Part shown: positions 1-28,785 of the stretch, in pieces
How positions within the stretch are numbered: the first letter of the stretch is position 1
Layout of the letters: each line of letters begins with the position of its first letter
Source: an uncultured Methanobrevibacter sp.
GTDB taxonomy: Archaea; Methanobacteriota; Methanobacteria; Methanobacteriales; Methanobacteriaceae
Assembly (NCBI RefSeq): GCF_947169325.1
Contig: NZ_CAMVPN010000001.1
Location: forward strand, 16,089-80,088
Direction: 5' to 3'
DNA: 64,000 nucleotides
Notes under the pieces: generated by a model
Database searches by the model: none
Told to the model about the DNA's origin: nothing
Seen by the model: the letters and a program-made list of their open reading frames with translations, nothing else
Made by a program: the position numbers and the translations under genes

Positions 1-2401
1 TCGATTTCTATGTTGTAGGCGTTGTTCATGAAGATGGAGTCCTTGATTATGTTGCTTTGATCAGATTTTTCTATGTAAACTGTGTTGGGTCCTCTGTTGT
101 TGATGTAAATTCCTGTTATTGTTGTGTTGGTTAGTGTGTTGCGGAAGGTGTTTGCTCCTCCGTATCGTGCTTTGTTGCTTGTGTAGTTTCCGTTGATTGT
201 TGTGTTGGTTAGTGTGCCGTAGAAGTGGTTTGCTCCTCCAATACTTGCGGTGTTGTTGTTGTATGTTCCTGTTATTGTTGTGTTTAAGGTCTGTATGAAG
301 TGGTTTGCTCCTCCGTTAAGTGCGTAGTTGTTGTTGTATGTTCCATTTATTGTTGTGTTTGTTAGTGTGCCGTAGAAGGCGTTTGCTCCTCCTTCTATTG
401 TTGCGGTGTTGTGGTTGTATGTTCCGGTTATTGTTGAGTTTGTTAGTGTATTTGTGAAGTGGTTTGCTCCTCCTTCTAGTGTTGCGGTGTTGTGGTTGTA
501 TGTTCCAGTTATTGTTGTGTTGGTTAGTGCATATACGAAGTGGTTTGCTCCTCCTCTGGTTGCGGTGTTGTTGTTGTATGTTCCGGTTATTGTTGAGTTT
601 GTTAGTGTGTTGTAGAAGTGGTTTGCTCCTCCTTCTATTGTTGCGGTGTTGTTTTCAAAGCTGCAGTTTAAGATGTAGGCGTTGCTGCTTTCCCAGTAGA
701 TTGCTCCTCCGTTGCCTGTGGTGTTGCCGTTTGCTAAGATGAGGTTTTTGATTGTTGTGTTGTCTGAGGTGATCTTAAATATTCTTGTGGATTGGTTTGC
801 GTTGATTGTGTGTCCGTTTCCGTTTATTGTAAGCGGTTTGTCGATGATGATTCCTTCGGTTATTGTGTCGAAGCCTTGGGTGTATGTGTGGCTGCGGTTC
901 AGGTTAATTGTGCTGTTTTTCTGGGCGTTGTTGATTATGCTTTGCAGGATGTCGAAGTCTCCTGTGCCTTTTGTATATGATGCTGTTTCATAGCTTGCTT
1001 TCAGGCTTATTTTTTCATCTTCAGGTGTGATTGGGATGTTTAGATTTCCGTTTTTCATGGTTTGTGTGTCAGGTACTTTTATGTTTTTTCCGGTGAGTGT
1101 CATGTTTATGTCCGGCAGTTTGCAGTTGTCGTCTTTGCTTGTTTGCTTGTTTTTGTAGAGGTTGTTTAGGCTTACTGTTGCATCGGTGTCGTTTAGGGTG
1201 ATGTCGAGGAAGTACCAGTTGTCTGCTGTGATTCTCCATGAGTTGGTTATGTCGGTGTCGTAGTTTGATGCGGTGTTTCCAAACCAGCAGTTTGTGACCT
1301 GAATGTTTCCGTTTCCGACATATATGTTGCCTGTGTTGTTTATGAAGATGGAGTCCTTGATTAAGCTGTTTTGATTAGATTCTACTATGTAAACTGTGTT
1401 GGATCCTCTGTTGTTGATGTAAATTCCTGTTATTGTTGTGTTGGTTAGTGTGTTGCGGAAGGTGTTTGCTCCTCCTATATCTGCTTTGTTGTGGTTGTAG
1501 TTTCCGGTTATTGTTGTGTTGGTTAGTTTTTCGTTGAAGTTGTTTGCTCCTCCTCTTTGTGCGGTGTTGTTGTTGTAGTTTCCGTTTATTGTTGAGTTAG
1601 CTAGTGCTTTCTCGAAGTGGTTTGCTCCTCCGTTAAGTGCGTCGTTGTTGTTGTATGTTCCATTTATTGTTGTGTTTGTTAGTGTGTTTTGGAAGTGGTT
1701 TGCTCCTCCGTATGTTGCGGTGTTGTTGTTGTATGTTCCGTTTATTGTTGTGTTTGTTAGTGTGCTCCAGAAGTAGTTTGCTCCTCCATTATCGTGTGCT
1801 TTGTTGTGGTTATAGTTTCCGTTTATTGTTGAGTTAGCTAGTGCTTTATCGAAGTAGTTTGCTCCTCCGTTGTATGTTGCGATGTTGTTTTCAAAGCTGC
1901 AGTTTAAGATGTGGGCATTGTTGCTCGCCCAGTAGATTGCTCCTCCCTTGCCTTGGGTTTTGCCGTTTATGAGAGTGAGGTTTTTGATTGTCACGTTGTC
2001 TGAGGTGATCTTAAATATTCTTGTGGATTGCTGTGCATTGATTGTAAATCCGTTTCCGTTTATTGTCAGTGGTTTGTCGATGATTATTCCTTCGGTTATT
2101 GTGTCAAGGCCTTGGGTGTATGTGTAGCTGCGGTTTAGGTTTATGGTGGTGTTTTCCTGGGCTTTGCTGATTATGTTTTGCAGGAGTTCGAAGTCGCCTA
2201 TGCTTTTTGTGTATGATGCTGTTTCATAGCTTGCTTTCAGGCTTATTCCACTTCCTGTAGGTGTGATTGGGATGTTTAGGTTTCCGTTTTTCATGGTTTG
2301 TGTGTCGGGTACTTTCATGTTTGTTGCGGTGAGTGTCATGTTTATGTCCGGCAGTTTGCAGTTATCGTCTTTGATTACATTTCCGTTTTTGTAGAGGTTG
2401 T
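1..2401 (-). pseudogene. adhesin-like surface protein, distal portion (two further ~1.24-kb repeat modules of GGAN-type beta-helix repeats). It is out of frame with ORF 2402..3394 and its 3' end lies beyond the window start.
   Basis: My manual minus-strand translation is open from ~2400 to position 1. It reads ...LNNLYKNGNVIKDDNCKLPDINMTLT...GGAIYW...NGGANYF...NCWFGNTASNYDTD...LDITLNDTDATVSLNNLYKN.... It is absent from the ORF track, presumably because there is no in-window stop. It repeats the architecture of ORF 2402..3394. Confidence 0.6.
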
Positions 2402-3394
2402 TTAGCTTACTGTTGCATTGGTGTCGTTTAGGGTGATGTCGAGGAAGTACCAGTTGTCTGTTGTGATTCCTTGTGAGTTGGTCATGTCTGTGTTGTAGTT
2501 TGATGCGGTGTTTCCAAACCAGCAGTTTGTGACCTGGATGTTTCCGTTTTTGACTCGTATATTGTTGCCGGTGTTGTTTATGAATATGGAGTCTTTGATT
2601 ATGTTGCTTTGATCAGATTCTTGTATGTAAACTGTGTTGGATCCTCTGTTGTTGATGAATGTTGCAGTTATTGTTGTGTTGGTTAGTGCTTTCTCGAAGT
2701 GGTTTGCTCCTCCTCCGTATTCTGCGGTGTTGTGGTTGTAGTTTCCGGTTATTGTTGTGTTTGTTAGTGTGCCGTAGAAGGTGTTTGCTCCTCCCTGGTC
2801 TGCGGTGTTGTGGTTGTAGTTTCCGTTTATTGTTGAGTTAGTTAGTGCTTTATCGAAGTTGTTTGCTCCTCCGAGTGTTGCTGTGTTGTTTTCAAAGCTG
2901 CAGTTTAAGATGTGGGCATTGCTGCTGTCCCAGAAGATTGCTCCTCCGAAGTCGTTGGTGTTGCCGTTTATGAACGTGATGTCTTTTAAAACCACATCGT
3001 CATGTTGTATGTATAATATCCTTGATTTTTTCTGGGCGTCCAGGACGGTGCCTGTTTTGCCGATAAGGTTAATGGATTTAATCACAATGATTTCATTTCC
3101 ATCTCCAAAATATGTGATTCCATCAAGGTAGACGGTGCCTCCGTCGTCTGCACGCAAAATCGCATTTTGGATGTCTTTGAAGCTGTTTCCGGTCACGTTG
3201 ATTTCCTTTGCCTTGAGCATGGGAGTATCCTCTGCGGCGAGGATTTCATCGGCGGGTTCGTAGTTCATCATTTCAATTTCGGTTGTATCCTGTGCCATGC
3301 TGGCATCTGTGGTGTTGTCAGCAGCGCTTGAGGCTGTGATTGCAAGCAGGCCTACAAGAAATATTGCAAGCAGTATTGTTGTTTTTTTTAGCAA
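2402..3394 (-). CDS. adhesin-like protein, N-terminal ORF with signal peptide and beta-helix (GGAN/GGAIF) repeats, truncated by a 1-nt frameshift
   Basis: The 330-aa ORF starts MLKKTTILLAIFLVGLLAITASSAADN (signal peptide) and carries repeats of the type NNTA..GGANxF...LTNTTITGNYNHN. It ends ...LDITLNDTNATVS* exactly where the downstream paralogous repeat reads ...DATVSLNNLYKN. Confidence 0.75.
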   Translation of the reverse strand: MLKKTTILLAIFLVGLLAITASSAADNTTDASMAQDTTEIEMMNYEPADEILAAEDTPMLKAKEINVTGNSFKDIQNAILRADDGGTVYLDGITYFGDGNEIIVIKSINLIGKTGTVLDAQKKSRILYIQHDDVVLKDITFINGNTNDFGGAIFWDSSNAHILNCSFENNTATLGGANNFDKALTNSTINGNYNHNTADQGGANTFYGTLTNTTITGNYNHNTAEYGGGANHFEKALTNTTITATFINNRGSNTVYIQESDQSNIIKDSIFINNTGNNIRVKNGNIQVTNCWFGNTASNYNTDMTNSQGITTDNWYFLDITLNDTNATVS

Positions 3395-3607
3395 ACTTGA
3401 TTCCTCCAGTAAAAAATTATCTTAAACTGATATGTTATTTGAACAACATCCATATTAATGTTATCCATTAAATATGATTTTCAATTGTTTTTGCAATTTG
3501 GACCCCATTATTTAGACAATCGGGCAATATGTTGTCAGTGATGCCGATTGCATAAATCCGGCTTCAAGCAAAAACCTTATTTTTATGAAACTAGATATAA
3601 TATATTC

Positions 3608-4201
3608 ATGACGGTAATGAGAAAACTTTCAGTGGTAACTATGGATAAGGACAGGATAGATGATGTAAACAGGGTGATATTCAAATATTCCGATTTCGCC
3701 TCCCAGTCATCATCACATCTCATTTTCGATGTGGAGCCGATAAGCATTGACGACATTGTCGAAGACCTCACCTTCTTTAATATCACAGGTGAAAGCGATG
3801 CAATAATCGATGCAAAATTAAAGGAAATGGTCAAGGAGCTCAATGAGCTCGGAACCGATTATTCAATAAGGAACATGGATACCGGAAAGTTCTACACCAC
3901 AATAGAATCTGTCGGAGCCATAAAAATCAGCCTGGAAAATCTCAAGACAATACCGAAAGGAACCTACAAACAGATAGACCAGTGGAAAAACGTGATAACC
4001 GAATACGGATATTGCAAGGGCTACAAGCCGCTATTCCGTCCGATTGAAGGAATTTTAATTGAAGATCTGGAAGTTAAAGAGGAAATCATCTATCTCTTTT
4101 CCACACCTGCCGAAAACATGGCGAAGCTCATTGACTATATCTCCGAAAAGATATCCGAAATCAATCCTGAACTTAAGATAGAATCAGTGATTTATAAATG
4201 A
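3608..4201 (+). CDS. hypothetical protein
   Basis: The track ORF 3548..4201 starts at TTG, and the first ATG is at 3608 (MTVMRKL...). I recognise no motif. The composition is coding-like. Confidence 0.45.
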   Translation: MTVMRKLSVVTMDKDRIDDVNRVIFKYSDFASQSSSHLIFDVEPISIDDIVEDLTFFNITGESDAIIDAKLKEMVKELNELGTDYSIRNMDTGKFYTTIESVGAIKISLENLKTIPKGTYKQIDQWKNVITEYGYCKGYKPLFRPIEGILIEDLEVKEEIIYLFSTPAENMAKLIDYISEKISEINPELKIESVIYK

Positions 4202-4329
4202 GTGCACGCTTAAGCAACGTCACTCTGTCCTTTTCTATTTTTTAAAGTGCAGTTGCCGGATTGGGAAGTGTGGGAATCCTTTTTTAAAGGCAATCGGTAT
4301 TGATTGCGGCATTCATCTGCTTGTGTCTC

Positions 4330-5165
4330 TTTACATGCTTTTAGTAACATTGACGGTTGGGTTTTGCGGTTATGTATGCGGTTGTTAATGTAATTGTCTG
4401 TTTTTGTCATTTTTGCATATTTTTAGTAACAGTTTAGTGACATTAACGGTTGGGGTTTGCGGTATTGTCTTTGTTGGTGTTGGTTTTAATTGGCTGGTTT
4501 TGACATTAACGGCTGGCATTTGCGGTTTTAGAGGTGTTTGGATTTGAGGATATATATGCAGGTTCTGTTTTGCGGTTGTTAATGTGGAATAGTGGATGGT
4601 AATGTCGGTTTTGTCTTTTTTGGTTTGGTTCATGTTATTCACATTAACGGTCGGCTTTTGCAGTTTTTGATTTGTTTGGATTTTGGTATATTGTGTTTTG
4701 TCATTTTTATATGTATTTTATTGTTGTTTAATCGGTTTTGTTCGGCTTTGATTAATTTTAATAACATCATTGTGACATTAACGGCTGACATTTGCGGTTT
4801 TGGGACTGTTTGGTTTTGTGGATATATATGCAGGTCTAATTATTGGGTTGTTGATGCGTAATCGTGGATGGTAATGTCATTGTCCGTTTTTGTCATTTTT
4901 GCATATTTTTAGTAACAGTTTAGTGACATTGACGGTTGTGTTTTGTGGATTTGTCTTTGTCGGTGTTGGTTTTAATTGGCCGGTTTTGACATTAACGGTT
5001 GGGTTTGTTTGGTTTTGCGGATATATATGCAGGTTCTGTTTTGAGGTTGTTAATGTCGCTTTTTGGTTGGATGCAGCTGTTATCTGTTTTGTTTTGGTTG
5101 TGTTGGTTTTAATTGGCCAGTTTTAGTGACATTGACGGTTGTGTTTTGCGGTTGTTAATGTCAAT
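4330..5165. repeat. G/T-rich noncoding repeat array (TGACATTAACGG family): two ~485-bp tandem units built from ~130-bp subrepeats
   Basis: tgacatt[ag]acgg occurs at about 4350, 4439, 4501, 4641, 4774, 4924, 4988 and 5127. The subunit is gttggttttaattggc.ggttttgacattaacgg...tttgcgg...ggatatatatgcagg...gttgttaatgtggaat.gtggatggtaatgtc. The block tttttgtcatttttgcatatttttagtaacagtttagtgacatt.acggttg is duplicated at ~4394 and ~4880. Confidence 0.85.
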
Positions 5166-5203
5166 TTCACTTGCCTTCATTGCCCTTGGCGGCCATGTCT
5201 ATT

Positions 5204-5228
5204 TTTTATATATCTTGAATTCAAGATA
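5204..5228 (+). promoter_or_regulatory. TATA-like box (TTTTATATAT) abutting an 18-bp perfect palindrome TATCTTGAATTCAAGATA, upstream of the STAND gene
   Basis: TTTTATATAT lies at 5204..5213 and the palindrome at 5211..5228, 57 nt upstream of the ATG at 5285. GGAG lies just before the ATG. Confidence 0.4.
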
Positions 5229-5284
5229 GTTAATCAGAAATGATTATTGGCAAACTCATTTTCTAGGATAATGGAGAAAAGATC

Positions 5285-8200
5285 ATGGCAACATTCAGGG
5301 TATTTATTTCATCAAGTTTTCTTGATTTTCAAAATGAAAGAAATGCGCTTCACGAAACGGTTTTTCCAAAGCTTGAAAAGCTCTGCGCTAAGCATGGAGC
5401 TTATTTTCATGCGGTTGATTTGAGATGGGGAATATCTGAAGATGAAGGCAGGGCATACAACACTCTTGACATATGCCTAAATGAGGTGAGAAGGACAGCC
5501 CGGATAACTCCAAGGCCCAACTTCCTAATCCTTGCAGGCGACAGGTATGGATGGAGACCTCTTCCTCTTCAAATACGTGAAAAGCTATTTAAGAAGTTAA
5601 TCCGGGCATCTTCAGATGACGACAGGGGAATAATCGAATCCGAATGGGTCAGGGATTCAAATGCCATGGATCCGATTTACGTCCTCAAAGACAGGAGGGA
5701 AGCATCAGAAAATGAAGTTTCCATCAGATCGGCGCTGGATAGGACAACTGAGAAAGCGGATTTAAGCGAAAGGGAAGTGATTGAGATTTCCGCTTCTGCA
5801 ACACACAGGGAAATCCTTGCACGTGAAGAGCTTCCCGAATACATTTCAGGAAACGTTCACTGCGTCATCAGAAACCTCAACGCAGTTCCGGCGAACCTTC
5901 TTCAGGAATTCTATGATGTTGGATTCAACGGTGATTTGGACTATCCTGCCATGAGAATGTCATCACACCTCAAGGACATCCTGAAAAAGGCATTTCCGGA
6001 TGCCTACACATACGCTGCCGACATTTCCGGAGACGGGAAATTCAGTGATGAGGTGATTATTGAAAAGTTTTGCGATGAAGTGTATCGCAGGCTTGAGAAG
6101 AACATCCTTGCTGAGCTTGAAAAGATGGAGGAGCATCCGATGGCCGATGAAGTGCGCCATCACTGGAATTACGCCGGCAAATGCCATGAAAACTTCCAAT
6201 TGGGAAGCCGTTCGAAACTGAAGCTACCTGAAATGTCAAGGTTTAGGGGCCTTTGGAAGGAGGATGTTGTCCTCATTGGAGATGAAGGCTGCGGCATGAG
6301 CATGCTCATGGGGGAACTTGCCTTTAGAGTAAGGCGCAAATCCAAAAGGTCCACGGTCATCCCCCGTTTCATTGCCGAGAGCGGAAATGCCGCAGACATA
6401 AACGGCCTTTTGAGGAGTGTGCTTGCAGAAGCGGGAGTGGAAAATGCCGACTCCATTTCAGACCCCCAGCTCTACATCCAAAACAATCCTTTCACATCAC
6501 CTGTGGTTATCCTGATTGACGGTGTTGAGAATGCAAAAAATCCGAAATGGCTTGTGCGCTATCTTATGGACCTTGAAGATGCGAATCTTCGCATTTACAT
6601 GTCAATGACACGTGATTTCTACGCTTCATTTCCGGACAATGTCAAAAGAAGGCATCGCCTTGTTGAAGTGCCTCCCCTTGATGTGAAGGATGCCTCTGAA
6701 ATTCTAAAGCATTCGCTTGCCCTTAAGGCAAGAAGGCTCACACGAATGCAGAGCGATGCAATCCTTGATGCATTCGCCAAAAAGAGGGACTTGAAGTTTT
6801 TAAACGACATGATTCATGATGCCTCAACCTGGAGAGGGGACATGACTCCTCAAATATCTCTGCATTCCCACAGTGATGTGCTTGATGACTATTTCACTGG
6901 ACTTGGAGATGAAAGGCGGGTGAACAGGCTTCTGTGCCTTCACACTGTGAGATTCATTCTCGCTTCAAGGGAGGGACTCTCTGATGATGAGCTGTTGGGA
7001 CTGCTTGCAGGCCAAAAGGAAGTCATGGATGAACTCAAGATGCACAGTTTCCATGAGTTCAGCGAAGGAAAGATTCCTTTCATGTATCTTTCACGCTTTC
7101 TTGAAACATTAAGGCCATTTCTCAAGGAGAACCTAAGCGAAGGAAAGATTGTTCTTCGCTTTGCGGATTCAGTTGCCGTTGATGCCGCCTCAAAATACGC
7201 ATGGAACGGGCAGGATGGGGATTTGCAAATCAGGAAAACCCGCATTGCAATGGCAGACTACTTTGAAGAGAAACTTGGCGACATTTTTCGAACCATGATT
7301 GCGGCAATCGCCGATTCTTTTGGAGGATCTATTGCAGACTACAGAACAAGGCTCAACTCCAGAATCGCCCTTGAATATCCATGGCAGCTTCTTGAGGCGC
7401 AAGAGTATGAAAGGCTCTATCACTTCATCTCAAACAGACAATACTTCACTTTTCTCTGCGACAGGAATCTGGCATACATGCTGAGCTATTGGACTGCTGT
7501 TGAAAAGCACACTGACCATTCAATCAGGGACAGCTTCAGCGACATCTTCGAAAAGGCCCAGCATGAAGAGGAGATTGATGACAGCATACTGAGACCTCTT
7601 TTGGACCTCATGACAGCTCACGGAGGATTGGGCGATGAGATTTCCATCATAAGTATGGCCGATACAAAAGGAGCATTTGCGCAAAACTCAGACTACGTGC
7701 ATGGCCAAAGCCTGCTTGATGAGGCAAGATACGCCGAAGCTCTTGAACATGGCGAAAAGATGATGGCCGCTTCAGCTGAAGGCACCATTCAGAGATTCGA
7801 TGCCATTTACCTCAAAGCCCAGGCACTATACAGGATGGAAAAATACGAGGATGCTCTTTCAGTTTTCAAGGAACTTGAAAACCTCGCCAATAGCCTTCAG
7901 GAGCGATCAAGGATTTTTTCAGCCGTAAAATGGCAGGCCTCATGCTACAAGGCCATGGGCATGCAGGACGAAGCCATGGACAGATACATGATGCTTGAAG
8001 ACTATGTGGATGAGGATTCAGACGCCAGTGAAGCGATAGTCGCACTCTTTGAAGCGGCCACCGGAATTGCAATGTTCAAAAACATGTATGAAGGCGCTGA
8101 AAGGCTCACAGCAGCAATGAACATGGCAGAAAAGCTTGGAAACCGCACATGGCTTGACACAATATATCACACTGCTGTAATGCTCTTTTCCCTGACCGGG

Positions 8201-8980
8201 GATCGTCCCGAACAGGCGGAGGAAGTCTTTAAAAAATGGATCGCGCTGAAGCTTGAAGACAACCCTGATTTCGACATTCCAAATGACATCCTAAGCAATT
8301 ATTTCAATGCGGTATACAAGCTCTATACTGAAGAGACAGGATTTTCAATAGAGATGTACGACGTCATGAAAAGGACAGGTGCAATACATGAGGAACTCAG
8401 TCGTGACGGGACTTCCCATGGAAGGCTGATTGCAAAGTCATACGAATATATTCTCGACAATATGCTTCCTGCATTGAGCTATTATGTGGAACACCGCAAT
8501 GGAAATGCGGAATGCTTTAAAAACGCAATGAACAAGGTGATTGAGGAAAGATTCGAGGGATACATGGATGGAACAAACGAAAACTACCGGAAAATCATAG
8601 ACTTGATTCACACTCAGGATGCAGGAGGGCAATTGTCTGACGAGGACCTGCGCACAATGAACTTCTTCCTTATGGGGATGGCCCTTAAACTGGGATTCAA
8701 GGACTTTTTAGCCCTGACAATAGTTGATGAAAACAAAGAATGTGCCAGAATGGTCCTTGGAATTTACAATAATGTATATGTCAGGCAGGTTGACTGGTGG
8801 AGGGAAAACATCCCCTACAACGCCTATAAACTGCGTATGAAGTACAACGGTATGGTGGATAAAATGTATGATGGCGTGAATGCGGAAGTTGAAAAAATGC
8901 TTGAAGGGGAAGATTCGAATTTTAGAGCAGTGCATGACCGCCTGCTTCAACAGAAAAAGGAGCACGATTCGGATAGGTGA
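5285..8980 (+). CDS. STAND-type protein: DUF4062-like N-domain, P-loop NTPase-like core with Walker A Lys replaced by Met, and C-terminal TPR-like helical repeats
   Basis: The N-terminus FRVFISSSFLDFQNERNALHETVFPKLEKLC...VDLRWGI...LILAGDRYGWRPLP matches my recollection of the DUF4062 (NWD1/TEP1-type) N-domain. The P-loop-like segment is VVLIGDEGCGMSML, with the Met codon at 6296..6298. The Walker B-like segment is PVVILIDGVEN. The C-terminal helical repeats include YLKAQALYRMEKYEDALSVFKEL. Confidence 0.75.
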   Translation: MATFRVFISSSFLDFQNERNALHETVFPKLEKLCAKHGAYFHAVDLRWGISEDEGRAYNTLDICLNEVRRTARITPRPNFLILAGDRYGWRPLPLQIREKLFKKLIRASSDDDRGIIESEWVRDSNAMDPIYVLKDRREASENEVSIRSALDRTTEKADLSEREVIEISASATHREILAREELPEYISGNVHCVIRNLNAVPANLLQEFYDVGFNGDLDYPAMRMSSHLKDILKKAFPDAYTYAADISGDGKFSDEVIIEKFCDEVYRRLEKNILAELEKMEEHPMADEVRHHWNYAGKCHENFQLGSRSKLKLPEMSRFRGLWKEDVVLIGDEGCGMSMLMGELAFRVRRKSKRSTVIPRFIAESGNAADINGLLRSVLAEAGVENADSISDPQLYIQNNPFTSPVVILIDGVENAKNPKWLVRYLMDLEDANLRIYMSMTRDFYASFPDNVKRRHRLVEVPPLDVKDASEILKHSLALKARRLTRMQSDAILDAFAKKRDLKFLNDMIHDASTWRGDMTPQISLHSHSDVLDDYFTGLGDERRVNRLLCLHTVRFILASREGLSDDELLGLLAGQKEVMDELKMHSFHEFSEGKIPFMYLSRFLETLRPFLKENLSEGKIVLRFADSVAVDAASKYAWNGQDGDLQIRKTRIAMADYFEEKLGDIFRTMIAAIADSFGGSIADYRTRLNSRIALEYPWQLLEAQEYERLYHFISNRQYFTFLCDRNLAYMLSYWTAVEKHTDHSIRDSFSDIFEKAQHEEEIDDSILRPLLDLMTAHGGLGDEISIISMADTKGAFAQNSDYVHGQSLLDEARYAEALEHGEKMMAASAEGTIQRFDAIYLKAQALYRMEKYEDALSVFKELENLANSLQERSRIFSAVKWQASCYKAMGMQDEAMDRYMMLEDYVDEDSDASEAIVALFEAATGIAMFKNMYEGAERLTAAMNMAEKLGNRTWLDTIYHTAVMLFSLTGDRPEQAEEVFKKWIALKLEDNPDFDIPNDILSNYFNAVYKLYTEETGFSIEMYDVMKRTGAIHEELSRDGTSHGRLIAKSYEYILDNMLPALSYYVEHRNGNAECFKNAMNKVIEERFEGYMDGTNENYRKIIDLIHTQDAGGQLSDEDLRTMNFFLMGMALKLGFKDFLALTIVDENKECARMVLGIYNNVYVRQVDWWRENIPYNAYKLRMKYNGMVDKMYDGVNAEVEKMLEGEDSNFRAVHDRLLQQKKEHDSDR

Positions 8981-8998
8981 TTTACTTTTCGCAACGTT

Positions 8999-9022
8999 CT
9001 GCATTTTAATGCAGTCTTTTTA
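8999..9022 (+). terminator. hairpin CTGCATT-tt-AATGCAG followed by a T-run
   Basis: A 7-bp perfect stem 19 nt after the stop at 8980 is followed by tctttttatt. Oligo-T is the usual archaeal termination signal. Confidence 0.45.
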
Positions 9023-9062
9023 TTCATGAGTGGTGGGGTCTGCTTTGTTTTAAGTCGGTAGT

Positions 9063-9290
9063 GTTGGTTTTAATTGGTTGGTTTTGACATTAACGGTTGT
9101 GTTTTGCGGTTTTAGAGGTGTTTGGTTTTGCGGATATATATGCCGGTCTAATTATGGGGTTGTTAATGTGGAATCGTGGATGGTAATGTCATTATCATGA
9201 TTGTTGGTGTTATCTGATTGGCTTTTATGGGGAAGTATAAGTTGGTTTTGACATTAACGATTGGGTTTTGCGGTTTTTGACTTGTTTGCT
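9063..9290. repeat. TGACATTAACGG-family repeat: one full ~135-bp unit plus a partial unit
   Basis: Positions 9063..9200 read gttggttttaattggttggttttgacattaacggttgtgttttgcggttttagaggtgtttggttttgcggatatatatgccgg...gttgttaatgtggaatcgtggatggtaatgtc. A second core, tgacattaacgattggg, lies at ~9250, and cgttaatgtcac lies at ~9336. Confidence 0.85.
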
Positions 9291-9416
9291 GTTATGGACA
9301 TATCCTTGCAAAAATTTAGTTTGAGTTTGGCCAGTTCAGTCGTTAATGTCACATTACCACCGGCTTTTAACAAGTTATATTACCATAGCCCAACAATATA
9401 TAATTGGGGGATTGAA

Positions 9417-10013
9417 ATGGAAGATAAGAATATTATAATTGTTCTATTGGTGATAATTGCCATAATTTTGGCATTCATTGTTGGATATATGTTTATGCCG
9501 TCCTTGAATGCTAAAAAAGACTGTAAAATAACCATAACCAGCAATTCAAGTTTATACGATGGGGACACCATAACATTCAAGCTAACTGACATGGAGGGTG
9601 CAGGAATATCAAATCAAAATGTCAGCATCACTCTTATAGGGGAAGACGGAACAGAGGATTCCTATTCGATAATCACAGATAACAATGGTGGCGGGGGACT
9701 TAAATTAAATGAAATTACAGGAAATTATGTAGTCAACTGCACTTATGCAGGCAATGAGAATTTCTCAGCAAACAGCACTTCACAGGATCTGGAAATCAGG
9801 GAGAAGGTTTCCGAAAGCGAAGTGCAGCAGCCAACTCAGGAATCTTCAAGCCAATCAAACGAGATTCACTATGATGAGGAAATCAACGTTTATTATGACA
9901 GCAATGGAATAGTGGTTGATCCCGATGGCGAACATCCTATGGAGGTTGGAAAGCAATATTCCGACCTTGTTGAAAGGCAGGAAAAATGGAAACGTGGAGA
10001 ATTGGAAATGTAA
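9417..10013 (+). CDS. small membrane-anchored protein with an Ig-like (adhesin-type) domain
   Basis: The ATG at 9417 is preceded by GGGGGA. The N-terminal TM segment is IIIVLLVIIAIILAFIVGYMF. It is followed by ITITSN..GDTITFKLTD..G.GISNQNVSITL...GNYVVNCTYAGNENFSANS, which resembles the Ig-like repeats of the large surface proteins in this window. The track ORF starts upstream at TTG 9261, inside the repeat. Confidence 0.6.
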   Translation: MEDKNIIIVLLVIIAIILAFIVGYMFMPSLNAKKDCKITITSNSSLYDGDTITFKLTDMEGAGISNQNVSITLIGEDGTEDSYSIITDNNGGGGLKLNEITGNYVVNCTYAGNENFSANSTSQDLEIREKVSESEVQQPTQESSSQSNEIHYDEEINVYYDSNGIVVDPDGEHPMEVGKQYSDLVERQEKWKRGELEM

Positions 10014-10084
10014 TTCTCTCTTTTTCTTTTTTTGTTAATTTAATTTGAAATGTCTTTTTTCATAGAGCTATTATGCAGGGTTAT

Positions 10085-10215
10085 GTTGCTTTTAATTGAC
10101 TGGTTTTGACATTAACGGTTGGCATTTGCGGTTTTAGGGTTGTTTGGTTTTGTGGATATATATGCAGGTTCTGTTTTGCGGTTGTTAATGTGGATTCGTG
10201 GGTGTTAATGTCATT
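10085..10215. repeat. TGACATTAACGG-family repeat, one ~130-bp unit
   Basis: The sequence is gttgcttttaattgactggttttgacattaacggttggcatttgcggttttagggttgtttggttttgtggatatatatgcaggttctgttttgcggttgttaatgtggattcgtgggtgttaatgtc. It has the same orientation as the other copies. Confidence 0.85.
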
Positions 10216-10484
10216 GTAGGTTTTTGGTTGTGTTTTGTCGGTGTGCATTGTTTTAGTAACATTTTTATGAGTTAAAATATGGTTTTGTTGATGTTTATCG
10301 GATTTCACATAATACAAAAAAATGATTAATTAAATTAATCAAGTAAGTTGTTAACTGCTAAATTATGCAATGATTTTTTAATTTGATTACTTTGTGTTTT
10401 CAGCTATTTCTTTTAATAACTCTATAATTTCATTATTCTGTTGTATAATCTGATTATTTTGTTGGCTTAAAACATCTAATTTTA

Positions 10485-10934
10485 TTAATTGGATGCTAGA
10501 AACCTCCCATTTACTTTTTCTATTCTTGAGATTCCATATGTAACATATGCTCTGTATACTTTGTCTGCTTGTTTTGCTTCATCATGATATATTTTAAATA
10601 TTTCATCGTTAGTGAATCCATATTCTTCATTAATTTTCTCTCTTTTATCGATTTTGTTTAGATATTCTTGTTCTCTTTCTTCTTTTATTTTTTTATTTTC
10701 TTCTTTTATTCTTCTGATTTCTTCTTCGTTATGTATGGTGTATGTTCCACAATTTGGGCAAATTTCACTGTCTTTATATATTTTCCCACAGTTTTGGCAG
10801 ATTATTGATGGTTTATTTTTGTCCTGTTTATCTTTTTCTTCTTCGTAATGGGGGTTGGATGTTCCACATTTTGGGCAATTTTCGAGGTCTTTATATATTT
10901 TTCCACAGTTTTCACAGATTATCGTTGATGTCAT
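10485..10934 (-). CDS. double zinc-ribbon protein, function unknown
   Basis: There are two CxxC-x(n)-CPxCG units: ICENCGKIYKDLENCPKCGT and ICQNCGKIYKDSEICPNCGT. They are followed by a charged helical region. The gene is very AT-rich. Confidence 0.6.
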   Translation of the reverse strand: MTSTIICENCGKIYKDLENCPKCGTSNPHYEEEKDKQDKNKPSIICQNCGKIYKDSEICPNCGTYTIHNEEEIRRIKEENKKIKEEREQEYLNKIDKREKINEEYGFTNDEIFKIYHDEAKQADKVYRAYVTYGISRIEKVNGRFLASN

Positions 10935-11127
10935 TTTTAATCCCTTATTGAGTTTTTTTGTTTATGTATATTTGTTATACAAGTATGAATATTTTATCTT
11001 TAATATTATGTATATAATTTATTTAATACTCTTGATCATCAGTTTTTAATATATGTTTATATATAAATTGTAGTGATTATGAAAAATTGTTGTCATTTCG
11101 TAAAATTGCTTTGGGGAGGTTTTTAAT

Positions 11128-12912
11128 ATGGAAGTTAATTCATTTTATAATTATTTAATATCTGAGGGTTATTGCTTTGATAAAGAATTAATTGAAAATT
11201 ATTTGTTATCTTTAAAAGTAAAACCCTTTGTTATTTTAACTGGAAATTCTGGAACAGGTAAAACAAAATTGTCACAATTGTTTGCTAAATTCACTAATTC
11301 GGGATTAATTTCCCTTAAACCCGAAGAGGATTATGTGAAAGTTAAAGGGAATGTAAATTATTCTTCATGGAATAGTATGGGTTGGACTCTTGAAAAAAAT
11401 TATTTTCGTGGTTTTTTACCCATTAAAGAGTGTGAATCAAAATGTGAATTAGTAGTTGATGGAATTCCTGCAAAGGGGGGAATAGGTTTAACAATTCAAT
11501 TAGATTACACTAATCCTGTTTTAATGGACCATTTGAAGAACTTATGTGATGAACTAGGCATTAAAAAATTTTCTCAAAAAGAATATCCGATTGATATTTT
11601 TATAAACGTAGAGGGCATTAAAAAAATCATGGATGATGCTCTACCCATTGATGATTCAATTTATCTCACTCAAAATTCTAATAAATCTGCACAGGAAGAC
11701 CGTCAATGGAATATGGACCATGATTTTTTCAAATATTCTCCTTTCAGAAAAGGGAAAGTGGATTGTAAAATAATTGTTGATGGGATACTGTCTGATGCTA
11801 AACTTAGGGTGTTATCTAAATTAACTTTTTCTAAGAATGAGAGGTTACAAACGTACCTTAAAGAACATGATGGCGAAAAGGTAAATATAAAATTAAATTT
11901 AGTGGATTTTAATTTTGAAGAATTCGAACCGGAATGGGATATTGTTGATTCAATAAGCATTAGATCTGATTTAACGGGAGGATCTGAGGATAAGTATATC
12001 ATTGTCCCTGTTGGAGCAAACTGGACAGACAATACAAATATTGTAGGGTATTATAATGTAATAACAGAGGATTATCAATCAACTCCTGCTTATGATCTTA
12101 TTGAAGATGCACAAATTAACATGGGATGCCCATATTTCCTTATTTTAGATGAAATGAACTTATCTCATGTTGAAAGATATTTCGCTGACTTTTTATCTGC
12201 TATTGAAAGTGGTGAAGAAATTCCCTTGTATGGTGAGGATAAGACATTAACATTACCAAATAATCTTTTTACAATTGGAACAGTCAATGTTGATGAAACC
12301 ACTTACATGTTTTCTCCTAAAGTTTTAGATAGGGCAAATACTATTGAATTTGATACATTAAGCGCATGGGATTATATGGTTTCTGGTCTGGATGGTGATG
12401 ATTTTAAAGGGAACATTGAGTATTTACAGTCCCCTTTAGTTGATTCTAATATTTCAGAATTAAATATTCAAGATTTAAAGGACATATTATCGGAAATTAC
12501 ATACAATAACGATAGTTTATGGGACACATTAGCAATGGAACTCACAATATTTCAGGAAACTCTTAAGGGATCCAGTTTTGACTTCGGATTTAGGGTAATC
12601 AACGAAATCTTAAGATTCATGGTTGTAGCATGGAGATATGAAAACTCTCCAGATGAATGGGATAACTGGGAGAGATACTTTGATGCTCAAATTAAACAAA
12701 AGATCCTTCCAAAGTTGCATGGGTCTGAAAAAGCTATCGGTAATGTCTTAACTAAGTTATTCAACTTGTGTTTGGAAGAAAGAAACAATAATGAAAACCC
12801 TAAAAACATTGACATTAACAAAGAGGATTGCAGATATTACACTTCCGCAGTAAAACTTCAGAACATGTCCAAAGTATTGTCAGATCAAAGATACGTTTCA
12901 TTTATAAATTAA
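11128..12912 (+). CDS. McrB-like AAA+ (AAA_5-type) NTPase with a ~240-aa internally duplicated insert after Walker A
   Basis: The RBS is GGGGAGG. Walker A is FVILTGNSGTGKTKL. Next come VPVGANWTDNTNIVGYYN, then Walker B PYFLILDEMNLSHVERYFADFLSAIES, then FTIGTVNVDETTYMFSPKVLDRANTIEF. This is the McrB/AAA_5 pattern as I recall it. A nuclease partner lies 8 nt downstream. Confidence 0.75.
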   Translation: MEVNSFYNYLISEGYCFDKELIENYLLSLKVKPFVILTGNSGTGKTKLSQLFAKFTNSGLISLKPEEDYVKVKGNVNYSSWNSMGWTLEKNYFRGFLPIKECESKCELVVDGIPAKGGIGLTIQLDYTNPVLMDHLKNLCDELGIKKFSQKEYPIDIFINVEGIKKIMDDALPIDDSIYLTQNSNKSAQEDRQWNMDHDFFKYSPFRKGKVDCKIIVDGILSDAKLRVLSKLTFSKNERLQTYLKEHDGEKVNIKLNLVDFNFEEFEPEWDIVDSISIRSDLTGGSEDKYIIVPVGANWTDNTNIVGYYNVITEDYQSTPAYDLIEDAQINMGCPYFLILDEMNLSHVERYFADFLSAIESGEEIPLYGEDKTLTLPNNLFTIGTVNVDETTYMFSPKVLDRANTIEFDTLSAWDYMVSGLDGDDFKGNIEYLQSPLVDSNISELNIQDLKDILSEITYNNDSLWDTLAMELTIFQETLKGSSFDFGFRVINEILRFMVVAWRYENSPDEWDNWERYFDAQIKQKILPKLHGSEKAIGNVLTKLFNLCLEERNNNENPKNIDINKEDCRYYTSAVKLQNMSKVLSDQRYVSFIN

Positions 12913-12920
12913 AGATTTAA

Positions 12921-14798: not shown

Positions 14799-14840
14799 AT
14801 TTATAACGTAAGCTGCCAAATATTTAACCAGGAGATTAAC

Positions 14841-15233
14841 ATGAAAACCTTAAACGTTGTTGCAGCTATTATCAAAAAGGATAACAAAATCCTGGCCACA
14901 AAAAGAGGCTACGGCGAATTCATCAACATGTGGGAGTTTCCGGGCGGAAAGATTAAAAAAGATGAATCCAAGGAGGATGCTCTCATAAGGGAAATCAGAG
15001 AGGAACTGGACTGCACAATAAAACCCATAAAATTCGCCCTGGACCTTGAATACCAATATCCTACTTTTTATCTTAAGATGTCCTGCTTTGAAGCGGTAAT
15101 CACCGAAGGAACTCCAAGGCTTCTCGAGCACAATGACGCCAGGTGGCTTTCAAAAGAAGAGCTTGGCACTGTCAACTGGATTCCTGCAGACATCAAAATC
15201 ATCGAATACCTGAAGGAGACTATGGGTGACTAG
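14841..15233 (+). CDS. Nudix hydrolase, MutT/NudG-like (d)NTP pyrophosphohydrolase
   Basis: The Nudix box is GGKIKKDESKEDALIREIREELD. The MutT-like N-terminus is VVAAIIKKDNKILATKRGYGEFINMWEFPGG. GGAG lies before the ATG. Confidence 0.85.
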   Translation: MKTLNVVAAIIKKDNKILATKRGYGEFINMWEFPGGKIKKDESKEDALIREIREELDCTIKPIKFALDLEYQYPTFYLKMSCFEAVITEGTPRLLEHNDARWLSKEELGTVNWIPADIKIIEYLKETMGD

Positions 15234-15235
15234 AC

Positions 15236-15424
15236 ATGGATACCGACAACATTGAAAACATTGAAAAGAGACTTGAGGATGCAACCGCTCTTAAATCAAA
15301 TCTTGAATCAAAGCTGGTAAAGCTTGGAGATTCACCGAGAGCGGAAATCTTCGAAGTCCAGCTGAACAAAATCAACGAACTTATTGACCATCTTGAAAAA
15401 GAAAAAATCGAGCTTTCCAAATGA
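15236..15424 (+). CDS. small coiled-coil protein (62 aa), translationally coupled to its neighbours
   Basis: It starts 2 nt after the Nudix stop, and its stop overlaps the next start (ATGA at 15421..15424). The sequence is heptad-like and charged: IEKRLEDATALKSNLESKLVKL...LNKINELIDHLEKEKIEL. Confidence 0.5.
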   Translation: MDTDNIENIEKRLEDATALKSNLESKLVKLGDSPRAEIFEVQLNKINELIDHLEKEKIELSK

Positions 15425-22244: not shown

Positions 22245-22280
22245 GGGAGTTTCACTCTCTATTTTACTTTTTTTTTAGAC
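22245..22280 (+). terminator. hairpin GGGAGT-ttc-ACTCTC followed by a T-run
   Basis: It lies directly after the TAA at 22242..22244 and is followed by tattttacttttttttt. A near-identical element lies at ~22797..22838 after the duplicated small ORF. Confidence 0.4.
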
Positions 22281-22789: not shown

Positions 22790-23063
22790 AAAATGAGAGT
22801 TCAACTCTCTCTATTTTACTTTTTTTAGACTGACATGCGTTCAGGTGAGATTGGCATCTGATATATATTGGCATTCGCCTTTTACCTCATCAATGCAAAT
22901 GCTCGCCGTTAATGTCAATGCCGTATGATAATTCTTGAGGCATCAGATGGACATGCCAATTTAATCAACCGACTTTTCAATTTAACTCATGCCTTGATTT
23001 GTCCTCTGCAATGTGAAAATTAATGTAATATGAACTCCAAAACTATTATCACAGGTGCTTTTC

Positions 23064-28728: not shown

Positions 28729-28785
28729 ATAGCAATCTAAAATAAAAGTATATTCAATGGAATATATTTTTTATAGGGTTTTATT

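Follow-up and report, generated by a model that had tools for sequence, protein, structure and literature searches.

A previously undescribed family of modular non-coding repeats at a hypervariable intergenic hotspot of Methanobrevibacter

Introduction

BOX elements of Streptococcus pneumoniae combine boxA, a variable number of boxB modules and boxC, occur in more than 100 dispersed copies and adopt a stable fold. The Correia elements (CREE) of Neisseria, which lie genome-wide in both orientations, have inverted ends of 26 bp and duplicate a TA target. REP units are tight G+C-rich hairpins that alternate in orientation within BIMEs, and REPINs are mobilised by RAYT transposases. The length of attC sites ranges from about 57 to 141 nt. 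Among Archaea, the tandem repeats of the Borgs of Methanoperedens form perfect, short-unit, head-to-tail arrays that evolve fast. To our knowledge, mobile and regulatory repeat families have been little described in methanogens, and gene exchange among archaeal defence islands is still largely an open question.

Here we analyse a repeat family in a 64-kb stretch of genomic DNA (the window, 64,000 nt in all) from an uncultured Methanobrevibacter of the ruminant gut. Like BOX, the family is an intergenic, non-coding mosaic of modules with complementary ends, variable length, no transposase of its own and copy numbers that differ between strains; unlike BOX, it has about ten copies, almost all within 6 kb, a weak fold, a G/T strand bias, an archaeal host and no sequence similarity. 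With Correia and the ERIC (IRU) elements of enterobacteria it shares a length of ~100–150 nt, apparently terminal inverted repeats, long and short forms set apart by an internal segment, a position between genes and, possibly, promoter-like AT-rich boxes. It departs from Correia in its 9–11-bp inverted ends, nearly single orientation and tandem units, and in having no target duplication. As with REP/BIME and REPINs, the latter being two inverted repeats and a spacer, short palindromic units are clustered extragenically and downstream of genes, but no RAYT or IS200-type gene was found with the Methanobrevibacter repeats. Direct ~60–140-nt repeats after genes, AAC...GTT inverted ends and strain-variable gene content recall attC sites, the Vibrio cholerae repeats and archaeal CALINs; unlike attC, the folded bottom strand is missing, the core consensus is partly matched, the window holds no integrase and units are stacked without a cassette. 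Borg repeats are likewise archaeal intergenic arrays with strong strand bias and rapid copy-number change between close relatives, whereas the units described here measure 37–190 nt, are 62–91% alike, modular and spread over three intergenic sites.

Results

The + strand carries five copies of a ~110–150-nt repeat unit, at 4477, 4749, 4948, 9061 and 10083. Taken as 148-nt copies (4477–4624, 4749–4896, 4948–5095, 9061–9208 and 10083–10230), they are 62–84% identical to the reference copy, the 4477 unit, which confirms an earlier note on this DNA that had described a ~130-bp unit in one orientation at five sites. The ~485-bp tandem duplication reported there is also present: 4380–4516 and 4866–5002 are 91% identical at an offset of 486 bp. 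Allowing at most one mismatch, the window contains 17 occurrences of GACATTAACGG where 0.8 would be expected, a count that none of 100 shuffles reached, and GTTGTTAATGTS occurs 12 times against 0.9 expected. The core box is longer than the 9-mer, at 24 nt (TTTGACATTAACGGTTGnnnTTTGCGGTTTT), and has 11–12 copies. The inverted partner of the 9-mer has ~12 copies, and the two orientations are equally frequent at ~12 each; three core boxes (4439, 4640 and 4925) have no inverted partner. In long units the partner GTTAATGTG starts 76 nt after the 9-mer and GGTAATGTC or GTTAATGTC 96–101 nt after it, as expected from the inverted copies that the note had placed ~70–100 nt downstream. Outside the arrays, six exact copies of the 9-mer compare with ~0.7 expected (a hand calculation from base composition).

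Each unit is a mosaic of conserved short boxes and of spacers that come in alternative versions (Table 1). Units fall into short (37 nt, 5126–5162), middle (4346–4392) and long size classes. Counted from the first base of B, a long unit spans 85 nt up to the last base of D and 105 nt if D' is included. Relative to the short form, the long form has ~50 additional nt, flanked by TTT(T)GCGGTT direct repeats. B boxes are spaced 93, 63, 138, 134, 151, 63 and 140 nt apart, and the material between them is itself repeated; the distance from B to the AT block varies (15, 21 or 36–38 nt), and adjacent units are often 15–55 nt apart with no cassette between them. The end pair TGACATTAACG / CGTTAATGTCA is present in eight units, and the conserved A module and tail E extend outside it. 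No direct repeat of 2–9 bp (target-site duplication) was shared by the flanks of eight units. A profile search placed 11–12 copies in 6 kb of the + strand and a single degenerate copy on the − strand, where the arrangement of a B box, ~45 nt and ATATATAT recurs; the same arrangement was seen at contig loose ends in X1, X2 and X3. A marginal profile match (E ~0.01–0.04) lies inside an adhesin-like gene, at 33856–33897.

The G/T-rich character of the repeats was evident in their composition (36% GC, GC skew +0.50, AT skew −0.46), with skews near zero in other local intergenic DNA. Over 1354 nt of repeats, the + strand had 13 T runs of at least five and 54 of at least four nucleotides, against a single A run of four or more.

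Table 1. Boxes of the repeat unit, and coordinates of repeat features and neighbouring genes in the window
Feature	Position	Strand	Description
A box			TTTTAATTGG
B box			TGACATTAACGG, then TTTGCGGTT
AT block			(AT)4-GC
D and D' boxes			GTTAATGTC, the inverse of B
E			T-rich tail
217-aa gene	3548..4201	+	Directly upstream of the array; conserved beside repeats in L033
First, middle-size unit	4339..4396	+	B AACATTGACGG 4346–4356; degenerate AT block ATGTATGC 4372–4379; D GTTAATGTA 4384–4392
Tail E, then partnerless B box	4393..4462	+	Tail ATTGTCTGTTTTTGTCATTTTTGCATATTTTTAGTAACAG; GACATTAACGG 4439–4449; duplicated at 4879–4948 within the 486-bp repeat
Long unit u4477	4478..4606	+	A TTGGTTTTAATTGG 4478–4501; B 4502–4512; AT block GGATATATATGC 4548–4559; D GTTAATGTG 4578–4586; D' GGTAATGTC 4598–4606; profile E = 8e-43
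Degenerate unit	4613..4735	+	B-like CACATTAACGG 4640–4650; AT block decayed; no D box; E = 3.5e-15
Long unit u4749, without A module	4750..4878	+	B 4774–4784; AT block 4820–4831; decayed D GTTGATGCG 4850–4858; D' 4870–4878
Second tail E and partnerless B box	4879..4948	+	GACATTGACGG 4925–4935; part of the 91%-identical duplication
u4963, internal 15-nt deletion	4964..5057	+	A 4964–4987; B 4988–4998; AT block 5019–5030; D GTTAATGTC 5049–5057
A module, then short unit	5098..5162	+	B GACATTGACGG 5128–5138; TTGTGTTTTGCGGTT; D GTTAATGTC 5154–5162
STAND-type NTPase gene	5285..8980	+	DUF4062, P-loop NTPase, NWD1-like winged helix, TPR (Pfam); repeats on both sides
Long unit u9061	9062..9190	+	A 9062–9085; B 9086–9096; AT block 9132–9143; D 9162–9170; D' 9182–9190
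u9225	9243..9351	+	Best inverted ends, TGACATTAACGA ... TCGTTAATGTCA, 11 bp perfect; interior diverged; E = 7e-28
Ig-like gene, small membrane-anchored protein	9417..10013	+	Weak Big_3_5 and Pilin_N matches; repeats on both sides
Long unit u10083 and tail E	10084..10264	+	Between convergent genes; A 10084–10107; B 10108–10118; AT block 10154–10165; D 10184–10192; D' GTTAATGTC 10204–10212; tail to ~10264, ending in TTTTAGTAACATT, a truncated B box
Isolated degenerate copy	22894..22931	−	GACATTAACGGCGAGCATTTGC, ~45 nt, ATATATAT; profile E = 1e-3

Array copies are confined to three intergenic spots around the STAND NTPase gene and the small Ig-like gene. The gene order (repeats, STAND gene, repeats, Ig-like gene, repeat) agrees with the earlier description of repeats bracketing these two genes. 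Just upstream of the array, at 1–3394 on the − strand, are C/A-rich, repeat-rich adhesin-like genes. The product of the 217-aa gene had no match in Pfam, NCBIfam, PHROGs or PADLOC, and its structure model had a mean pLDDT of 43, too low for use. A domain search of ORFs of at least 110 aa found no transposase, integrase or recombinase gene in the 64-kb window, and no candidate regulator gene was found beside the arrays. Farther along the window, a Cdc6-like gene (48317–49426) lies 38 kb from the repeats, and a motif cluster at 44054–44173 is a different, better candidate for a replication origin. IS605 OrfB genes were seen solely in other Methanobrevibacter loci that have no repeat.

The family is non-coding and matches no Rfam family, in keeping with the note's failure to recognise it. 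The window gave no gathering-score match to Rfam; at E up to 1, the region 3500–11500 gave a single match, which was irrelevant and outside the repeats, and tRNA and tmRNA scans returned nothing. Three protein searches found no homologue of the ORFs inside the repeats, as befits the by-products of composition that they had been suspected to be: the product of a − strand ORF matched itself only among 5.8 billion protein clusters, a full HMMER search of 1.84 billion representatives returned the window's own ORFs and two low-complexity false matches, and a search with an alignment of the + frame translations returned nothing. With tblastx there was no translated similarity to the window or to related loci, and nucleotide similarity to genes was also absent. 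A core-box pattern scan of 185,579 species-representative genomes, JGI metagenomes and IMG/VR found no locus with a second box. Its matches were isolated and inside coding sequence (a Bacteroidales gene, and a phage HAD-like gene in which GACATTGACGG encodes DIDG), and we take them to be chance. Blastn of the array against phage and plasmid collections gave nothing, and neither the window nor the pattern scans of genomes, metagenomes and viruses yielded a parent insertion sequence with the same inverted ends and a transposase. Full-text literature searches on the motifs and on Methanobrevibacter repeats returned primers and unrelated papers only; the family is previously undescribed. Among the collections searched, it was seen in ruminant-gut metagenomes only.

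Parts of the unit are found beside relatives of the Ig-like gene. Downstream of a homologue with 66% amino-acid identity (L028), the A+B block is 27/30 identical and the surrounding spacer has diverged, and a weaker A+B copy lies downstream of a homologue with 50% identity (L032). The Ig-like gene retains a 3' A+B module in three different genomic contexts. The other Ig-like homologue loci in Methanobrevibacter (L017–L027 and L029–L031) carry no repeat, and are too diverged to be counted as empty sites.

The locus is a hypervariable intergenic hotspot within a defence/adhesin island. In L033, a sister strain represented by the one 1.67-kb Logan contig from which a STAND-less arrangement is known, the 217-aa gene (contig positions 1–351, 95.7% identical to its 3' end) is followed by one unit, after which come units that correspond to the window from 9062 on; this strain lacks both the STAND gene and the greater part of the array. 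When we sought the STAND indel junctions in L033, the spacer alignments were non-significant (51 of 300 shuffles scored as well). Divergence of L033 from the window was 13–15% in the repeats versus 1.8% in the Ig-like gene and 4.3% in the 217-aa gene, and the boxes diverged about as fast as the spacers (13% vs 15%), far above the rate at synonymous sites in the genes on either side. At the 9061 position, L033 has a unit that is 85% identical to u4477, 84% to u10083 and ~81% to its positional counterpart; that same-position units in two strains best match different paralogues points to gene conversion or exchange.

Array length also differs between strains, with contigs that skip 178, 285, 277, 473 or 157 nt; those from runs X2 and X9 skip 4255–4432, where the first middle-size unit is missing. 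In other strains short units stand in tandem at ~4x single-copy depth. The depth of the B box in X2 and X3 was ~9–10x single-copy, roughly the window's own box count, and copy number is about ten per genome. In four metagenomes we found no listed difference from the window in B, TTTGCGGTTTT, TGTTTGGTTTTG, GGATATATATGC or GTTGTTAATGTGGAAT, and one listed difference (9181) in the stretch containing D'; differences were concentrated at 9097–9102, 9114–9118 and 9144–9158. Similarity between strains ends at unit ends (4610, 5161–5163, 9190–9193 and 10212), and in four other metagenomes it stops just after D' at 10212. Loose contig ends from other strains show D directly next to B, in the form GTTAATGT-CATTTC-ACATTGAC, which is an inverted repeat of 8-6-8 layout. 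A B box is also where several Logan contigs terminate.

The earlier note had envisaged a long hairpin enclosing the TATA-like ATATATAT, and had looked to compensatory changes in the inverted 9-mers as a check; neither was borne out. In DNA folds of both strands of six units, only the 9–11-bp terminal stem paired, closing a loop of 17–90 nt. Single-stranded DNA folds of ordinary units reached −2.5 to −4.8 kcal/mol, about as for shuffled sequence, with u9225 the exception (−10.5 to −12.7 kcal/mol). As + strand RNA, long units folded no better than shuffles (z = +0.4 to −1.5). RNA folds better than shuffled sequence were obtained for u9225 (z = −2.6) and for the short unit (−15.2 kcal/mol, z = −4.1; DNA fold −4.8 kcal/mol), and + strand G:U pairs lengthen the B/D stem to 14–16 pairs. 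The consensus RNA fold (RNAalifold) was −5.95 kcal/mol with a covariation term of 0.03. Between L033 and the window, substitutions hit both arms and left 6 of 9 Watson-Crick pairs in one case and 10 of 14 in the other; none was compensated and none restored a pair.

RNA-labelled libraries yielded three contigs, of depth 2–3, strandless and possibly DNA carry-over, which overlap two units (4484–4741 in X24 and 9231–9497 in X23). A search for RNA runs using 9 kb of the window's housekeeping genes found none. In units 4477, 4749 and 10083, a T5–T6 run lies within ~10–15 nt after D'.

Discussion

We tentatively favour, with somewhat less than even confidence, a lineage-restricted, low-copy family of non-coding modular repeats comparable to the BOX, Correia/ERIC and MITE classes. 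Copying at the DNA level was seen as the 486-bp duplication, the size forms, the apparent exchange between paralogues and the gain or loss of whole units between strains. Such copying maintains and reshuffles the family. We read duplications, gene conversion and indels, acting at a recombination hotspot, as the means of its propagation, and the short forms may derive from deletion between the TTTGCGGTT-type direct repeats, which are placed where the long form has its extra sequence. Of the roles proposed in the earlier note, MITE-like elements or recombination sites fit best, given the change in array length, the reshuffling of units and the one strain in which the STAND gene is missing together with the bulk of the array; the operator and small-RNA roles are less probable. 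The 10–11-bp inverted ends TGACATTAACG / CGTTAATGTCA could be recognised, as double-stranded DNA, by a protein that acts in trans from a gene elsewhere and is either a transposase/recombinase or a regulator that binds DNA. Such a reader would explain how the box consensus survives near a 50–66%-identical neighbour protein while copies decay. As a side effect, the dense oligo-T runs of the + strand should let the arrays stop + strand transcription coming from upstream genes.

Several observations sit poorly with a MITE-type element. The 64-kb window holds no transposase, integrase or recombinase gene and no unit has a target-site duplication. The A module and the tail are conserved as well, outside the inverted ends, and a classical MITE would not usually show this. 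A single copy departs from the common orientation, three B boxes stand without a D partner, and the contigs from RNA-labelled libraries overlap two units, which leaves some probability to a transcribed function. With ~10 copies, nearly all in one 6-kb stretch, local duplication alone, without any trans-acting enzyme, could account for the pattern.

A rather unlikely alternative, though the strongest of the rivals, is that the units are operator or promoter arrays, with B and D as transcription-factor binding sites, the A module (TTTTAATT) and the (AT)4 block as TATA-like elements; the arrays would tune expression of the STAND and Ig-like genes or drive antisense transcription, and a change in their length would alter the regulatory input. 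Invariant short boxes among variable spacers, a 9-mer equally frequent in both orientations and over-represented outside the arrays, and the partnerless boxes, which are expected of independent binding sites, are all consistent with this. So are the recurrence of the B box, ~45 nt and ATATATAT in unrelated contexts, the retention of A+B beside distant Ig-like homologues, and the position of the array, whose short unit stops 43 nt before the TATA-like box (5205–5214) that belongs to the STAND gene. However, B, AT block and D are variably spaced, no purine-rich BRE can be recognised beside either TATA-like element, and u10083, between convergent genes, has nothing downstream on the + strand to drive. 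In L033 the boxes are spared hardly more than the spacers, and there is no candidate regulator gene beside the arrays.

It is improbable that the units are small-RNA genes, in which the AT block would serve as a TATA box, transcription would start near D and stop at the next T5 run, and G/U-rich RNAs of ~40–110 nt would result; in a variant, a B...D stem would alter the stability of read-through mRNA, as in ERIC and Correia. The G:U-extended stem, the folds of the short unit and u9225, the T5–T6 runs past D' and the coverage of two units by RNA-labelled contigs speak for such genes. Yet long units fold no better than shuffles, Rfam gave nothing for them even at E up to 1, covariation is near absent from the consensus fold, and L033 loses Watson-Crick pairs without compensation. 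T runs are ubiquitous in so G/T-rich a composition, so the "terminator" spacing is uninformative, and the RNA-labelled contigs are shallow, strandless and possibly DNA.

More doubtful still are cassette recombination sites of the attC/CALIN kind, each cassette being a gene with its 3' unit, which has ...AAC and GTT... as its limits. A tyrosine recombinase from another part of the genome would then insert and excise cassettes at the D box. In its fullest form, which we consider just as much of a long shot, the units would serve a so far unrecognised system that captures gene cassettes in the variable islands of Methanobrevibacter, as its recombination sites; the system would be an integron analogue with a non-hairpin site. 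The STAND and Ig-like cassettes would each carry a 3' unit, and a distant enzyme would bind TGACATTAACG / CGTTAATGTCA as double-stranded inverted repeats and insert, excise and stack cassettes, its core perhaps being the 8-6-8 repeat of other strains, which is the kind of core site that tyrosine recombinases use. Like attC sites, the units do come after the + strand genes and point the same way; their length of 85–105 nt falls in the attC range, and their ends carry AAC...GTT. The 3' A+B module kept by the Ig-like gene, the presence or absence of the STAND gene and the end of strain similarity right after D' also accord with cassettes, and Archaea are reported to have integrons and CALINs, with one genome of Methanobacteriota among the carriers (PMC9668308). 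The single-strand fold that defines attC is nevertheless missing, with no second paired box and no extrahelical bases, and CATTAAC and GTTAATG match RYYYAAC and GTTRRRY at 5/7 positions each. No integrase lies in the 64 kb, many units are stacked 15–55 nt apart without a cassette, three boxes are partnerless, and neither limit of the STAND indel could be assigned to a D box.

Decayed gene fragments, for example of the C/A-rich adhesin-like genes at 1–3394, would account for the shared strand composition (GC skew ~+0.3 and AT skew ~−0.55 in the adhesin-like region), the − strand open frames of 78–85 codons and weak matches (69–75% over 32–35 nt) to 78-bp gene repeats, but this reading is effectively refuted: no search found a protein homologue, no gene in the window or related loci showed translated or nucleotide similarity, the profile search found no copy within the genes at 1–3394 and one marginal match at 33856–33897, and open frames lie on both strands, as they would with A missing from one and T from the other. 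The test by which the note would have exposed gene fragments, alignment to an intact coding sequence, therefore does not refute the view of a non-coding element.

Four further candidates were rejected. A CRISPR array or remnant is at odds with the irregular spacing and with inter-box material that is repeated, not unique spacers. For a diversity-generating retroelement or retron there is no reverse transcriptase, and differences are not adenine-specific. Replication-origin or centromere-like iterons would call for a neighbouring partner gene, which is absent, and another site is the better candidate for an origin. The + frame shared by putative type I toxin peptides is interrupted in u4477 and has no start signal.

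For annotation, the ORFs called inside the repeats are artefacts and should not be recorded as genes, and short-read assemblies of this methanogen lineage break at the repeat units. The repeat could serve as a strain-typing marker for rumen Methanobrevibacter. For the biology of the lineage, the stretch is a hotspot at which strains gain and lose a STAND defence gene, and the finding would carry more weight if the boxes proved to be the sites of a dedicated recombinase or regulator.

A local family of modular repeats

The G/T-rich repeats were recovered as direct repeats of 148 nt, whose copies at 4477, 4749, 4948, 9061 and 10083 are all on the + strand and 62–84% identical to the reference copy. 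The units described in the earlier note are confirmed, and its ~485-bp tandem duplication was recovered at 486 bp (4380-4516 v 4866-5002, 91% identity). The 11-mer GACATTAACGG occurs 17 times in the window with at most one mismatch (0.8 expected), a count reached by 0 of 100 shuffles, and its inverse GTTGTTAATGTS 12 times (0.9 expected). A unit profile search of the window placed + strand sites only at 4338-5153, 9049-9363 and 10070-10231, with a degenerate copy on the - strand (22894-22931) and a few marginal matches (E 0.01-10). The repeats are 36% G+C with a GC skew of +0.50 and an AT skew of -0.46, whereas both skews are near zero in other intergenic DNA of the window. Their + strand has 13 T runs of at least five nt and 54 of at least four, against a single run of A.

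The conserved core exceeds the 9-mer first described, its consensus across eleven copies being TtTGACATTaACGGTTGnnnTTTGCGGTTTT. Long units have ~50 nt more than short ones, the extra sequence being flanked by TTT(T)GCGGTT direct repeats, so duplication or deletion at such short repeats can convert one size class into another. Three B boxes lack a D partner (4439, 4640, 4925), and the 9-mer is approximately balanced in orientation, occurring as B about as often as D.

Features of the repeat neighbourhood and elements of the repeat unit, the latter in 5' to 3' order
Feature	Position	Strand	Sequence or content
Adhesin-like gene	1-3394	-	repeat-rich
217-aa gene	3548-4201		function unassigned
Repeat array	4339-5162
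STAND NTPase gene	5285-8980		DUF4062, P-loop, NWD1-type winged helix, TPR repeats
Two repeat units	9062-9351
Ig-like protein gene	9417-10013		small, membrane-anchored
One repeat unit	10084-10264
Zinc-ribbon gene	3' of unit 10084-10264	-
Defence genes	beyond zinc-ribbon gene		McrBC-like pair, NUDIX gene, type IV methyl-directed restriction enzyme
A module	first in long unit		GTGTTGGTTTTAATTGGnTGGTTTT
B box	3' of A module		GACATTAACGG
Linker	between B box and AT block		TTGnnnTTTGCGGTTTT, variable pentamer, TGTTTGGTTTTG
AT block	3' of TGTTTGGTTTTG		GGATATATATGC
Variable 14-mer	between AT block and D box		two versions, GGTCTAATTATGGG and AGGTTCTGTTTTGCG
D box	3' of variable 14-mer		GTTGTTAATGTGGAAT
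D' box	3' of D box		CGTGGATGGTAATGTC
Tail E	end of long unit, often present		T-rich, ATTGTnnGTTTTTG...TTTTAGTAACA
Short unit	5126-5162		B, TTGTGTTTTGCGGTT, D; nothing else

Variation among strains and relatives

Scans for the core box found it absent from 185,579 species-representative genomes, JGI metagenome contigs and IMG/VR, save for single matches that we took as chance, and the family was absent from GenBank phages and PLSDB plasmids. Repeat sequence is carried by many ruminant-gut runs (sheep, bovine and goat gut metagenomes), and a homologue of the Ig-like protein is annotated as Methanobrevibacter sp.; the host is a ruminant-gut Methanobrevibacter. B-box depth in two such runs (X2, X3) was ~9-10x single-copy, roughly the box count of the window alone, so the family is low-copy and largely local. 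Across four metagenomes the B box, TTTGCGGTTTT, TGTTTGGTTTTG, GGATATATATGC and the D box were free of listed differences and the stretch with D' had one (9181); differences clustered in the three variable spacers. Array length varied between strains, with contigs skipping 178, 285, 277, 473 or 157 nt, and in two further runs (X9, X10) the short unit occurred in tandem (...GTTAATGT-TATTGTTGGTTTC-ACATTGACGG...) at ~4x single-copy depth. Strain similarity repeatedly ended just 3' of D or D' (4610, 5161-5163, 9190-9193, 10212). One run labelled as a single organism, not a metagenome (X7), matched 4670-4968 and 5010-5160 at 99-100% identity, and its depth was zero across the 217-aa gene and, past the first ~280 bases, across the STAND gene; the repeat stretch may sit in another context there.

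A sister strain from another sample is represented by one 1,670-nt Logan contig (L033). The 217-aa gene is represented there by its 3' end (95.7% identity), followed by ~200 nt that include one middle-size unit (B, 15 nt, CATATATGCAGG, GGTAATGCA), after which the contig aligns directly to window 9062-10154 (91.7%). It lacks the STAND gene and most of the array, ~160 nt standing in place of window 4202 to ~9035; the junctions are approximate, as the spacer alignments are not significant. The two strains differ by 1.8% in the Ig-like gene (3.5% at third codon positions), 4.3% in the 217-aa gene (8.5%) and 13-15% in the repeat stretch, boxes and spacers alike. In L033, the unit occupying the 9061 position is 85% and 84% identical to window units 4477 and 10083 v ~81% to 9061, which argues for exchange or conversion of units between positions.

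At greater distance this divergence pattern is reversed. Downstream of an Ig-like homologue with 66% protein identity (L028), on a contig that terminates in the repeat, the A+B block is 27/30 identical, whereas the nearby spacer has diverged. A 50% homologue (L032) is followed by a weaker A+B copy, TTTTAATTGTTTTTCACATTAACG, and the block is absent beside the other Ig-like homologues examined (46-63% identity). Individual copies thus decay fast while a consensus persists across lineages, which is the signature of a family upheld through copying or through a trans-acting factor that reads its boxes, not through site-by-site purifying selection.

We tentatively favour, at somewhat less than even probability, a modular repeat restricted to this lineage and akin to BOX, Correia or MITE elements. 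Its copying dynamics are evident in the duplication, the size classes, the reshuffling between positions and gain or loss of units, and the variability between strains of the embedded STAND gene; a trans-acting protein may read the 10-11-bp inverted boxes as duplex DNA. Unlike classical MITEs, the repeats have no target duplication and no parent element was found, nearly all copies share one orientation, and copy number is low and local.

Alternative explanations

Operator or promoter arrays would be consistent with invariant boxes, their occurrence in both orientations, and an arrangement of B, ~45 nt and ATATATAT that recurs in other contexts. However, spacings are variable and unit 10083 lies between convergent genes, and we consider this reading unlikely.

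The inverted 9-mers had been proposed to pair into a long hairpin, but Watson-Crick pairing is confined to the unit ends (9-11 pairs, lengthened to 14-16 by + strand G:T or G:U wobbles). Single-stranded DNA folds reached -2.5 to -4.8 kcal/mol, with a short stem at the base of an open loop of 17-90 nt, and shuffles were equally good; unit 9225 was the exception (-10.5 to -12.7 kcal/mol). RNA folds of the long units on the + strand did not surpass those of shuffles (z +0.4 to -1.5), and the consensus fold of six units gave -5.95 kcal/mol. The covariation check suggested in the earlier note came out against the hairpin: the covariation term was 0.03, and the most direct test, in the two same-position L033 counterparts of 9086 and 9250, showed arm substitutions that take Watson-Crick pairing from 9 to 6 pairs in one unit and from 14 to 10 in the other, with no compensatory change. 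B/D pairing is therefore under no visible selection.

Small-RNA genes or RNA hairpins are improbable; the one observation in their favour is three contigs of depth 2-3 from RNA-labelled libraries (4104-4317, 4484-4741 and 9231-9497), the first of which sits just upstream of the array. Less probable still are attC-like cassette recombination sites, despite the agreement in orientation, size and AAC...GTT ends, the retention of a 3' unit by one gene and the variability of the STAND gene. Integron attC sites are defined by a folded structure, a test that these units fail, and no transposase, integrase or recombinase domain was found in any ORF of at least 110 aa across the 64-kb window. We attach the same slight probability to a cassette-capture system that would use the boxes as duplex recombination sites.

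Decaying gene debris is extremely improbable, since in a test set beforehand the repeats proved non-coding, with no coding homologue by protein searches or tblastx. Among 5.8 billion clusters, the 78-aa - strand ORF product matched nothing beyond the two ORFs of the window itself; the shared + frame alignment of units had no protein match; full HMMER with the 85-aa ORF against 1.84 billion representatives returned itself and two low-complexity false positives; and tblastx of the repeats against the remaining window and all fetched loci gave no match. Open frames on either strand follow from the lack of A in one and of T in the other, and the ORFs are by-products of composition. Three further candidates were rejected: a known RNA (no match to known RNA families), a CRISPR array (irregular box spacings, 63-151 nt) and a replication origin (Cdc6-like gene 38 kb off, with a better origin-like motif cluster at 44054-44173).

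Genomic setting

The neighbourhood of the repeats is a defence/adhesin island. Its 11128-18357 block encodes an McrB-like AAA_5 protein (PADLOC PDC-M26A) with a DUF2357/PD-(D/E)XK partner, a NUDIX protein (PDC-S07) and a PLD-helicase-DUF3427 type IV methyl-directed restriction enzyme. Another Methanobrevibacter contig (L025, 11874-15395) has the same NUDIX and DUF3427 pair a few kb away from an Ig-like paralogue, and the repeats are absent from it. On other Methanobrevibacter contigs, IS605 OrfB/TnpB-type genes lie no more than 1-2 kb from Ig-like homologues (L021 6454-7388; L023-L026 9962-11101), at loci from which B/D-box repeats are absent. The adhesin-like coding sequence extends past the window start and contains tandem repeats of 78 bp (26 codons), themselves arranged in higher-order repeats of 1236-1314 bp; its strand composition is skewed like that of the intergenic family, and the sequences are unrelated.

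At 44054-44173 (intergenic 44011-44341), AT-rich DNA has four - strand copies of a (G/T)TTACACTTGAAA(T/C) box in 120 bp, with repeats of TTATAAC (mostly TTATAACTT) interspersed among them, 4 kb from a Cdc6/Orc1-like gene (48317-49426). The box resembles the Methanothermobacter origin recognition box, and the cluster may be the chromosomal replication origin; a literature search on the motif gave no relevant result. The 2.1-kb stretch at 26660-28786, in which no gene is convincing, shares the family's 9-mer and contains a tandem duplication of ~592 bp (26729-27320 and 27321-27700), TTTACACTTGAAAT in two exact copies (27078, 27670), three GTTAATGT(C/G) boxes (27412, 27509, 27584) and an 11-bp perfect inverted pair built on the 9-mer, GACATTAACAT (26694) and ATGTTAATGTC (27410), ~715 bp apart. 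Around a short + strand ORF, 22250-22320 and 22800-22870 are ~65-nt direct copies (- strand CAGATGCyAATCTyAsCTGAAmGCATGyCAGTCTAAAAAAAGTAAAATAGAGAG...), each with a short inverted repeat adjoining a T run, and may therefore be terminator-like.

Biological meaning

The repeat family is undescribed, and its kind, species-specific intergenic repeats, is familiar. Oligo-T termination is known in archaea, and with their + strand T runs the arrays should stop transcription behind + strand genes, acting as one-way terminators, likely as a side effect.
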